Assembly (NCBI GenBank): GCA_951406725.2
Contig: OX597818.1
Coordinates: 141,174,001 to 141,238,000, forward strand
DNA: 64,000 bases
Source: Octopus vulgaris
Taxonomy: Eukaryota
Direction of reading: 5' to 3'
Both the position numbers and the translations under genes were made by a program. Shown here piece by piece: positions 49,499-64,000 of this stretch (position 1 is its first letter; each line of letters starts with the position of its first letter). The notes beneath the pieces are model-generated. The model was not told the origin of the DNA and did not search any database. It worked only from the letters and a program-made list of their open reading frames with translations.

Positions 49499-50511
49499 GC
49501 AGACAGATAGATATACATATATTCACATACGTACATACACCTAAATTTGGCAACTGTAAAAGCAAGAACCCACCATATAACATTATATAAAGGATACTGC
49601 GAGCGGATGACCTGCCTTGACACGAGCTGCAATGAGGTAGCTTTCATTTGCTTTAACTTGATCTGAAATGCAATGTGTGTGGTTGTTGAGATTATGTATT
49701 TCCACGCAGCTAATAGATGCCAACTTAACAAGCACTTATGCTAAAAGGTGACATAAATCTAAAATGCTTCAGAGTAATGAAATTCGTTTTTTTGTTTCTT
49801 TTTGTTTCTTTTGCAAAGGAAATGGCGTCAGAACAGTTTCGTTTTCCAATTGATCACCAAAGAGAAAAACTGAAATGAAAGAAAGTAATTGATCATTTTG
49901 GTCTTAAATTTAGATCTGCTGAATGCAAACTGTCGACACCTGCACAATCATACACGCACACACACAAAGACACACACAAAAACACACACGCACTCATACA
50001 TACACATATACAAACATACGTACATTCATATATATATATCCATAAATACGGATGAGTAGACAAACGGAATATATTGGCGTACAACACATTTGTTATGTAT
50101 ATTAATTAATAACAGTTTGACAAATCTCCACGCAACTTCGCAGGCTCATTGGACGAACCTAACGCGTCAGGCTTGTAGAGACCGACTGAAAAAATTCCAA
50201 AATGCTTTCTAGATGTTGGGCTGCTATCGGTCGACGCAGCTCTCATTGCGTTTTAAGTATGACGCCAACATCAATTCCAACTTTATTTCTAGGACCACGT
50301 GCTAGGAAAGGATGTTGTTAACTGGCGTATCTCTATTTGGGACGTGGTGTATTGTTTATTAGCGACATCAGTTCGTTGGTGTGTTTGACTGTGTTTCAGT
50401 ATGTGTATCTGTCACGTGAGCGTGTATGTTTGATACGTAGCTTGTACATGGGGTGTGTGTTTTTTTCTGTTGAGAGCTACTGATGATAGGTGGAGTGTGT
50501 ATGTAAGTATC

Positions 50512-50920
50512 GGATCTTTTCGATTTGAACAGCAGTTCTTAACATAATTTCTAGGTAACTAAAAAATTTTAAACTTCGTATACTGGTAGAATGTGTTTAT
50601 AAAACATCTTTTTCTCTTGGCTTTATTGAGAAAATTCTATTGTTTGTAAGATATTTTTTTTCAATTTCGGCAATTTCAACCAATCAATTACGTCCATTGA
50701 CGTAAACAACATTCTGTGCCGTATGAATATGTCCCTCGTTTAAGAAACAGATTGGGTTTATTTACATTTGTGAAGGAAAAAAAAAGATACCCTTCCCCCA
50801 CCCCTAATCCTAACCCTAACTAGCCCTGAATCTAAAATATATTGAAATGCAATAGATCGATACTAGAGTCATAGTTATGGGTGACAATTTCATATGACAC
50901 CGCTAGAAAAAACGGTCGTT
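50512..50920. mobile_element. Second, inverted copy of the MITE at 1105-1523 (right TIR degraded)
   Basis: Begins GGATCTTTTCGATTTGAACAGCAGTT. The body is the reverse complement of 1130-1520, including CCCTAA repeats. Confidence 0.8.
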
Positions 50921-50948
50921 TTTTTTATATATAATGCATACATGCATA

Positions 50949-50987
<39 letters not shown>

Positions 50988-51284
50988 GAAATATTAAAAT
51001 TACTAAGGTTATATGGATACAGTTTGTGTATCAAATAGCTAACTTAAGGCGATGGCCTCATGGAGCTAATAAGCGGTCAGCTTTATTCTTATTTTTATAA
51101 GAATGCCATATTAGTATGGCGATAACTAATATTTTCCGGGAACGCTGCCGTTGTTCTCTTTTAGAGAGACTTAGTAATTTTAATATTTCTATTATTGAAA
51201 ACAAGTGGATGTATTCCACCGAAGCTAGGTAAATAAAACCTTTGAACAGAGATTGTCGGAAGCGACACCTACTGGTTTGGCTAC

Positions 51285-51326
51285 GCTGCATTGAAAAGGG
51301 GCAATACCCCGAAACGCGTCTGTAGC
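51285..51326 (+). ncRNA. Type I hammerhead ribozyme, U3:A8 core variant, copy 1
   Basis: GCTGCA-TTGAAAA-GGGG-CAATA-CCCC-GAAA-CGCG-TC-TGTAGC. Predicted cleavage after C51320 (GUC). Confidence 0.8.
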
Positions 51327-51647
51327 TGCCGGCCAAGTAGTGTGGAGCGACTGACCTCCCTTGTTCAAAGGTTATATGGATACAGTTTGTGTATCAAATA
51401 GCTAACTTAAGGCGATGGCCTCATGGAGCTAATAAGCGGTCAGCTTTATTCTTATTTTTATAAGAATGCCATATTAGTATGGCGATAACTAATATTTTCC
51501 GGGAACGCTGCCGTTGTTCTCTTTTAGAGAGACTTAGTAATTTTAATATTTCTATCATTGAAAACAAGTGGATGTATTCCACCGAAGCTAGGTAAATAAA
51601 ACCTTTGAACAGAGATTGTCGGAAGCGACACCTACTGGTTTGGCTAC

Positions 51648-51689
51648 GCTGCATTGAAAAGGGGCAATACCCCGAAACGCGTCTGTAGC
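51648..51689 (+). ncRNA. Type I hammerhead ribozyme, U3:A8 core variant, copy 2
   Basis: Identical to copy 1, offset +363. Confidence 0.8.
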
Positions 51690-52010
51690 TGCCGGCCAAG
51701 TAGTGTGGAGCGACTGACCTCCCTTGTTCAAAGGTTATATGGATACAGTTTGTGTATCCAATAGCTAACTTAAGGCGATGGCCTCATGGAGCTAATAAGC
51801 GGTCAGCTTTATTCTTATTTTTATAAGAATGCCATATTAGTATGGCGATAACTAATATTTTCCGGGAACGCTGCCGTTGTTCTCTTTTAGAGAGACTTAG
51901 TAATTTTAATATTTCTATTATTGAAAACAAGTGGATGTATTCCACCGAAGCTAGGTAAATAAAACCTTTGAACAGAGATTGTCGGAAGCGACACCTACTG
52001 GTTTGGCTAC

Positions 52011-52052
52011 GCTGCATTGAAAAGGGGCAATACCCCGAAACGCGTCTGTAGC
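52011..52052 (+). ncRNA. Type I hammerhead ribozyme, U3:A8 core variant, copy 3
   Basis: Identical to copy 1, offset +726. Confidence 0.8.
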
Positions 52053-52373
52053 TGCCGGCCAAGTAGTGTGGAGCGACTGACCTCCCTTGTTCAAAGGTTA
52101 TATGGATACAGTTTGTGTATCAAATAGCTAACTTAAGGCGATGGCCTCATGGAGCTAATAAGCGGTCAGCTTTATTCTTATTTTTATAAGAATGCCATAT
52201 TAGTATGGCGATAACTAATATTTTCCGGGAACGCTGCCGTTGTTCTCTTTTAGAGAGACTTAGTAATTTTAATATTTCTATTATTGAAAACAAGTGGATG
52301 TATTCCACCGAAGCTAGGTAAATAAAACCTTTGAACAGAGATTGTCGGAAGCGACACCTACTGGTTTGGCTAC

Positions 52374-52415
52374 GCTGCATTGAAAAGGGGCAATACCCCG
52401 AAACGCGTCTGTAGC
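52374..52415 (+). ncRNA. Type I hammerhead ribozyme, U3:A8 core variant, copy 4
   Basis: Identical to copy 1, offset +1089. Confidence 0.8.
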
Positions 52416-52577
52416 TGCCGGCCAAGTAGTGTGGAGCGACTGACCTCCCTTGTTCAAAGGTTATATGGATACAGTTTGTGTATCAAATAGCTAACTTAAG
52501 GCGATGGCCTCATGGAGCTAATAAGCGGTCAGCTTTATTCTTATTTTTATAAGAATGCCATATTAGTATGGCGATAA

Positions 52578-52621
<44 letters not shown>

Positions 52622-52682
52622 TATTTATATATGCATGTATATATGTACATATATACATATATATATATATATATATACATAC

Positions 52683-52716
<34 letters not shown>

Positions 52717-52752
52717 GCATATACATACATATATATGTATATATATATATAT

Positions 52753-52863
<111 letters not shown>

Positions 52864-63838: not shown

Positions 63839-64000
63839 ATCAACGAGGAGTTTGCATATTAAGTTGTGTTTGGAATTTTTCAATAAAGAGATTCTCCTTG
63901 TTAATTCTCTCCTGTGTGGTGATCCCGTCTTTACATTGGTAGAAGGGGAATATATAGAATTTGGGGTTTAAGTCTTTAGCACATGAGTCTAAGTGGTCAC
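63839..64000 (-). pseudogene. Penelope-like GIY-YIG endonuclease C-terminus (runs off the window edge)
   Basis: Minus-strand DHLDSCAKDLNPKFYIFPFYQCKDGITTQERINKENLFIEKFQTQLN matches the R..KE..FI.KF...LN terminal motif. Confidence 0.7.

Follow-up and report, generated by a model that had tools for sequence, protein, structure and literature searches.

The analysis of a 64,000-nucleotide stretch of Octopus vulgaris DNA (the window) reveals a tandem array on the plus strand at 51005-52584, composed of 4.35 units of 363 bp, with a short inverted segment at its left edge and (TA)n on both flanks. Only 2 substitutions are found in the 1,580 bp of the array, which indicate a very young locus. The inverted segment at 50982-51007, on the minus strand, is the exact reverse complement of 51170-51195, that is, of unit positions 166-191 when 51005 is taken as position 1. 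The same 26-mer agrees fully with units 3 and 4 and differs from unit 2 at a single position, and the match extends beyond neither edge. Its last 3 nt (AAG, 51005-51007) are at the same time the opening 3 nt of the array, forming a 3-nt microhomology at the junction. Both the 26-nt identity and the AAG overlap had been claimed in an earlier note on this DNA and were verified by direct comparison. When control 100-nt stretches of the window were compared with the unit on both strands, the longest matches were 5-12 nt and none of 622 reached 13 nt, against the 26 observed. This match-length control, together with the recurrence of the pattern throughout the family described below, rules out chance or an assembly artefact.

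The left (TA)n run, the target microsatellite, occupies 50946-50984 (TRF, period 2, 19.5 copies), and the right run extends from 52581 to 52860 (TRF), grading into a mixed TA/CA microsatellite. Thus, both outer ends do merge into (TA)n, as had been noted, with the letters held in common amounting to only 3 nt (ATA) at the outer end of the 26-mer and ~4 nt at the right end of the array. A target-site duplication at this locus is unreadable inside pure (TA)n. The left flank at ~50500-50925 belongs to a very high-copy repeat (summed contig depth of about a million in three runs), and a comparison of four runs with 50400-51300, aimed at an empty allele, returned only 6 reads from the raw-read run, with reads broken off at the TA run. 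Elsewhere in the window, a fragment resembling the C-terminal endonuclease of a Penelope-like element (PLE) protein lies on the minus strand at 63858-63998 (57% over 47 aa, E = 2e-11) and crosses the window end.

The repeat unit and its genomic family

The unit is non-coding, with a GC content of ~40%, and each copy carries at unit positions 281-322 a predicted minimal type I hammerhead motif consisting of helix I, a U3-A8 core, a 4-bp helix II and a short palindromic helix III. The first motif lies at 51285-51326 on the plus strand, where it was identified by a descriptor scan and where helices I and II are also present in the fold; its cut site, likewise predicted, would fall after 51320. 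Repeats of the motif follow on the same strand at 51648-51689, 52011-52052 and 52374-52415. A U3-A8 core is a described PLE hammerhead variant, according to the accessible text of PMC4209133. In older subfamilies, the descriptor scan found the palindromic loop 3 changed from GC to AT, and helices I and II varied with their pairs kept. Rfam reported no hammerhead in the array; its only returns, miRNA noise arising from microsatellites and an RT-2 hit below threshold, were disregarded. The unit RNA folds far better than shuffled sequences (z = -6.4). PLE-protein similarity was not found within the array, nor was an ORF with RT and GIY-YIG endonuclease found in or beside it. The unit, including its end-to-start joint, was covered in four of four runs, whose RNA status is a guess and whose contigs cannot separate circles, tandem copies and DNA.

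The unit is dispersed across the 2.8-Gb genome, with 1,106 unit candidates and 1,288 exact matches to the hammerhead 19-mer. A pattern joining unit position 191 to (TA)n gave 1,273 matches genome-wide, and one joining position 128 to (TA)n, built for the young subfamily, gave 72; the reversed-pattern control was 0 in both cases. The family therefore comprises at least 1,273 ends in the genome. By its tandem, non-coding, low-GC and dispersed organization, with a predicted hammerhead in each unit, the repeat fits the animal non-LTR retrozymes, whose units measure ~150-450 bp and have a GC content below 50%.

Two arms and two fixed ends

Four sets of copies were assembled, in which individual loci carry L numbers. 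Set A held the 40 best unit matches, with the array locus included and the selection blind to ends. Set B held the first 40 of the 1,273 191-ends, of which 2 were dropped (n = 38), and set C held 40 of the 72 128-ends. Set D, likewise selected blind to ends and tallied by eye, held the first 20 new interior-motif loci on C1, of which L223, masked and truncated, was dropped (n = 19). L060 and L068, truncated and taken from the wrong side, were left out, and L104, a segmental duplicate of L029 including its flanks, was excluded from the pooled count. Ends were binned at 111-133 for ~128 and at 180-200 for ~191.

In set A, 33/40 copies were two-armed, always 5'-to-5', and 7/40 had one arm only; 64/73 outer ends lay in (TA)n, as compared with a window background of 3.3%. 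Set D yielded 13/19 two-armed copies (11 with one end of each kind and 2 with a non-standard end) and 6/19 single-armed ones. Pooling set A, minus the duplicate, with set D gave 45/58 insertions that were two-armed and head-to-head. Among the 42 classifiable pairs of sets A and D, 39 combined one ~128 with one ~191 end, where 21.0 were expected (P = 3e-9), and 3 were homotypic; L114, whose inner structure is complex, was counted as one-of-each by its outermost ends. Set B contained 25/38 two-armed copies, 21 of them with a 128 partner, 1 homotypic and 3 other, alongside 13/38 with one arm. In set C, 34/40 copies were two-armed, and 33 of these 34 had a 191 partner. The ends at ~128 and ~191 persist in copies only ~80% identical to the unit of the locus.

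Inversions, (TA)n targets and end phase, which the earlier note had proposed to score across genomic copies, thus each proved to be the rule throughout the family. Since the inversion is a family rule, it is not a one-off 5' accident. The array locus itself is an ordinary family member. Its 26-mer is a short 191-arm (50982-51007), whose outer end at 50982 is the fixed end 191, as assigned from the exact reverse complement and the 191-end + (TA)n pattern. The array is the 128-arm of the same repeat (51005-52584), ending at fixed position 128 according to TRF and the 128-end + (TA)n pattern, and AAG joins the 5' ends of both arms. The "5' inversion" of the earlier note consequently holds as far as the inverted piece goes, but the piece is better read as a separately primed second arm with its outer end at a 3' priming site, 191. 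Between the two fixed ends lie 63 nt, unit positions 129-191 (51133-51195 on the plus strand in unit 1), which by end-phase counts and by analogy with the accessible part of PMC11167929 form a putative equivalent of the PLE tail.

Arm-to-arm mismatch was lower within than between loci in all three age classes (0.69 vs 1.15%, 0.78 vs 2.52% and 4.06 vs 11.47%), and both arms of an insertion are usually of one haplotype. Within arms, 90 variable positions were private or mixed and only 29 were common to all passes. Target-site duplications of 10-16 nt including a non-TA base were found at 6/46 informative loci, in which the TA run is interrupted, against 3.5% of mismatched flank pairs (P = 0.005). 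At L043 (302-1777), a whole two-armed insertion occurs twice in tandem, ~1.1 kb apart, probably by local duplication.

Junctions and 5' ends

The 5' ends of the arms abut each other directly, and no TA intervenes. Junctions were counted in copies at least 95% identical, giving 79, of which 54 had no gap. In 46 of these 54, the arms overlapped by at least 2 nt, where random joining would give 16%; the two long overlaps, of 8 and 19 nt, are probably due to internal inverted repeats. The remaining 25/79 junctions were gapped. Some of these gaps are point variants beside the junction instead of true inserts, and some were templated by the other arm or by adjacent flank, such as an exact 110-nt inverted copy of the flank at L062. 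Inserts of 38-110 nt, copied from flank or arm in inverted or direct orientation, were seen at L062 (5508-5617), L114 (1740-1838), L066 (498-537) and L033 (392-506), suggesting template jumping or end joining of the polymerase-theta type.

Junction positions also recur at unlinked loci (L012/L116, L027/L145, L022/L047 and L001/L130). Re-mobilisation of whole two-armed elements was considered and set aside: L012 and L116 have the same junction and equal arm lengths, yet neither their haplotypes nor their flanks agree, so that they look independent, pointing to microhomology hot spots.

The 5' ends are unevenly distributed over the unit. A cluster at positions 347-17 holds 60/210 ends where 20 were expected, and it includes the junction of the array locus at unit position 1. 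The long stem that contains the hammerhead has its 3' strand at this cluster. More generally, 5' ends prefer the 3' strands of predicted RNA helices (6/362 rotations scored as high, in a post hoc comparison), as is expected for an RNA template. A transcription start, instead of a polymerase stop, might conceivably also produce the 347-17 hot spot. At the predicted hammerhead cut, 5' ends showed no enrichment, with 5/210 within 309-319.

Arm lengths revealed a further class. Among 191-arms, 16/107 are 22-38 nt long and stop short of the 128 site, with none at 39-70 nt, as compared with 3/96 among 128-arms (P = 0.004). The array locus belongs to this short class, which may reflect collision with a second polymerase or a predicted hairpin near 147-165.

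Autonomous PLEs in the genome

Intact elements with an RT-CxxxxCxxC-GIY-YIG arrangement are present in the genome, end in (TA)n and have head-to-head arms. Two local PLE families end at two sites ~35 nt apart. In family 1, the two end sites are 34 nt apart in (TA)n and the arms are head-to-head; family 3 combines a U3-A8 hammerhead with a tail of ~35-40 nt, and its head-to-head copy at L191 has one short and one long end, so that both kinds are represented. Both outer ends were readable in only five autonomous insertions, of which 4/5 were one-of-each by eye. The local translations display a CX2-5CxxC linker between RT and C-terminal GIY-YIG, a layout that the accessible text of PMC8557442 gives as common to Neptune and Nematis. 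By linker and domain order, features common to Nematis too, these elements are candidate Neptune-type PLEs.

Homology between the unit and an autonomous PLE was sought among the top matches of four families (30, 30, 12 and 19 loci), drawn from tens of thousands of genomic PLE candidates, and none was found there (best match 21 nt, E at least 0.04). A PLE ORF at L062 was rejected as a partner, being a separate neighbouring insertion, and at L111, where the repeat directly borders a PLE copy's 3' UTR, it was read as having inserted into that PLE.

Several features of these families were observed along the way. A young candidate Neptune-type family (L072, 910-3342, and G000:C6:17952156-17956997) has many near-identical intact ORFs and ends 34 nt apart, and the descriptor found no hammerhead in the stretches of it that were examined. 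The L191-L199 family bears a U3-A8 minimal hammerhead ~90 nt before its first end. In a fourth young family (L204-L222), the final 170 nt before (TA)n contain, by eye, a minimal hammerhead-like motif with a changed core base, along with 13 nt matching the antisense strand of the unit at ~104-116, which may be chance. The L161-L190 family has a 3' region made up mostly of (GT)n/(TA)n-like simple sequence, in which ends are unplaceable.

Proposed mechanism and alternative explanations

We consider it probable that the array and its 26-nt inversion arose together in one insertion event through dual-end priming of the PLE type. In such an event, a GIY-YIG endonuclease would nick both (TA)n strands ~10-16 nt apart, and the two free 3' ends would prime RT at internal RNA sites 63 nt apart, aided by 3-4 nt of A/U pairing. 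Each cDNA would extend 5'-ward by 20 to 2,000 nt along a tandem or circular RNA, with a tendency to end at the base of the long stem that holds the hammerhead. The two antisense cDNA ends could then join only head-to-head, by 2-4-nt microhomology or a templated insert, with second strands filled in by repair. At the array locus, the 128-primed copy would have reached 4.35 units and the 191-primed copy would have halted after 23-26 nt. The borrowed enzyme is likely a PLE of the Neptune type, an assignment made by layout alone. This agrees with the earlier proposal of one RT-mediated insertion, plausibly by a PLE enzyme, which is supported by the family-wide inversions, the (TA)n targets, the fixed ends and the PLE-like layout.

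Self-priming would generate an inversion when a strand folds at a palindrome and copies itself, whether by the antisense model in the accessible part of PMC3846280 or by cDNA snap-back. It requires the short arm to be contained in the long one, as the 26-nt arm of the array locus is; 8/79 junctions come close to a palindrome, their inner ends lying no more than 15 nt apart, and some junction inserts are templated by the other arm or flank. However, among 34 copies with both arms shorter than a unit, 26 are not nested and 11 lack any shared sequence, while the 8 nested cases compare with 8.5 expected from shuffled arms. Moreover, a palindrome is absent from 71/79 junctions, and the 347-17 hot spot accounts for 6 of the 8 near-palindromic ones. 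The disjoint-arm copies already refute fold-back in large part and leave room for it at no more than a minority of junctions; we regard it as very improbable. Classical LINE twin priming, the alternative that the earlier note had mentioned, would use the RNA 3' end for one primer and a random internal site for the second, with the 5' part inverted, and we find it harder still to credit. Microhomology at the inner junction is compatible with it, and the short 191-arms (16/107 vs 3/96), including that of the array locus, resemble a polymerase halted behind another, yet a predicted hairpin near 147-165 also explains this class. This model does not fit priming sites that are both fixed and internal, the lack of a poly(A) tail, or 191-arms that in 67/79 cases run beyond the 128 site; only 2/79 arms stop within 15 nt of the start of the other arm, whereas the model of PMC2837659 needs a stop close to the second site.

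The length of the right arm could alternatively be secondary, with a short two-armed insertion followed by local expansion to 4.35 units through unequal crossover or slippage. The original unit number is not fixable from the array itself, and the accessible text of bioRxiv 10.64898/2026.07.22.740005 discusses PLE termini that are amplified locally to form tandem repeats. Against this, unequal crossover requires at least two starting units; more than one unit is present in 56/158 arms, of either orientation, and in both arms at once in 11/79 copies. Multi-unit arms stop at 347-17 on later passes (24/82 entries) as they do on the first (30/149), and the near-identity of the units (2 substitutions in 1,580 bp) marks a very young locus. 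Local expansion is in our judgement distinctly unlikely, and we infer that the array did not grow by unequal crossover, although a unit may have been gained or lost later. A less remote alternative, although still an unlikely one, invokes two RNA molecules or two separate insertions in one microsatellite. On a single RNA, strand displacement would be needed for arms whose unit coordinates overlap, as those of most copies do; for L1, two RNAs have been proposed to act in "dual priming" (PMC2837659, in its accessible part); and a single active source locus within a cell could account for the common haplotype. Yet random pairing predicts 21/42 one-of-each pairs where 39 are seen, unless the enzyme dimer is asymmetric, and the direct joining of 5' ends with no TA between them excludes separate insertions.

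Within the preferred reading of dual-end priming, the source of the two arms can be specified with less confidence. We lean slightly towards both arms deriving from one RNA molecule, and we hold the chances to be even that the template was a circle. A more specific version, in which a PLE dimer grips one circular RNA at sites 63 nt apart, with one active site per strand, and rolls from both, is put forward tentatively, at somewhat worse than even chances. If it were true, tandem arrays and head-to-head inversions would be written in a single reaction, and one-RNA, two-active-site priming, not self-priming, would be the origin of the inverted pseudo-LTR of PLEs and of their "tail at one end". 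Each of the >1,000 genomic copies would then record a single event, with the short class representing a rear polymerase that met the front one.

These findings make a small ORF-free family a large natural data set for separating published PLE insertion models, and its statistics argue against self-priming and LINE-style twin priming. They also provide a sharp prediction for an existing in vitro system, namely, that each event uses a single start site on each strand. Animal retrozymes are hereby tied to PLE machinery through an insertion footprint instead of sequence kinship, and their arrays are suggested to arise at insertion.

Comparison with known systems

Published work already covers this type of element, the layout seen in PLEs and the use of two start sites, and the comparisons that follow refer to the accessible parts of the cited sources. 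Metazoan non-LTR retrozymes (PMC7229834; bioRxiv 10.64898/2026.07.22.740005) are likewise dispersed, tandem, non-coding, low-GC units with a type I hammerhead each; those of mussels measure ~350-390 bp, and mobilisation by PLEs or LINEs has been proposed. Head-to-head arms, fixed paired ends and (TA)n targeting are undescribed in those parts for published retrozymes, whereas all are present in the octopus family. The preprint (10.64898/2026.07.22.740005) ties retrozymes to PLEs via pLTR homology, while no pLTR homologue was found here in four families; it also invokes local tandem amplification, whereas the octopus arrays look written at insertion. Circular monomer RNA and self-cleavage, further marks of non-LTR retrozymes, are putative in the octopus unit. 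A literature search by title and accessible text yielded no report of a one-arm-per-site rule or of non-nested retrozyme arms.

Endonuclease-positive PLEs of the Neptune type (PMC8557442, PMC3846280) share the inverted, 5'-truncated copy beside a direct copy, the tail at one end and the bias for (TA)n or other microsatellites, and they carry a minimal hammerhead, including the U3-A8 variant, as in the octopus unit (PMC4209133). Target-site duplications are a common feature as well, of ~8-10 bp in these PLEs and 10-16 nt in the octopus family. The octopus unit differs in having no ORF, in forming whole-unit tandem arrays in either arm and in its 63-nt tail, as compared with 30-40 nt in published PLEs and ~35 nt in the local ones. 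Its junctions are mostly non-palindromic, unlike those underlying the 2013 self-priming model (PMC3846280). The mechanism of tandem and inverted PLE insertions is stated to be unresolved in PMC8557442.

In twin-primed L1 (PMC2837659), two cDNAs on opposite target strands are likewise joined head-to-head. L1, however, uses poly(A) and a variable internal site, with its fragments parted by a deletion, whereas the octopus sites are fixed and the arms usually overlap. PAc, the anole Poseidon PLE protein, cuts and extends both strands in vitro from two internal start sites that bound the tail, and the hammerhead is dispensable for its insertion (PMC11167929). Two adjacent internal start sites, AT-rich targets and a predicted dimer are the points of resemblance. 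PAc starts without target homology, while the octopus ends have 3-4 nt in common with (TA)n, and in bulk it exhibits no between-strand difference in start site, whereas the octopus copies use one site per arm (PMC11167929).
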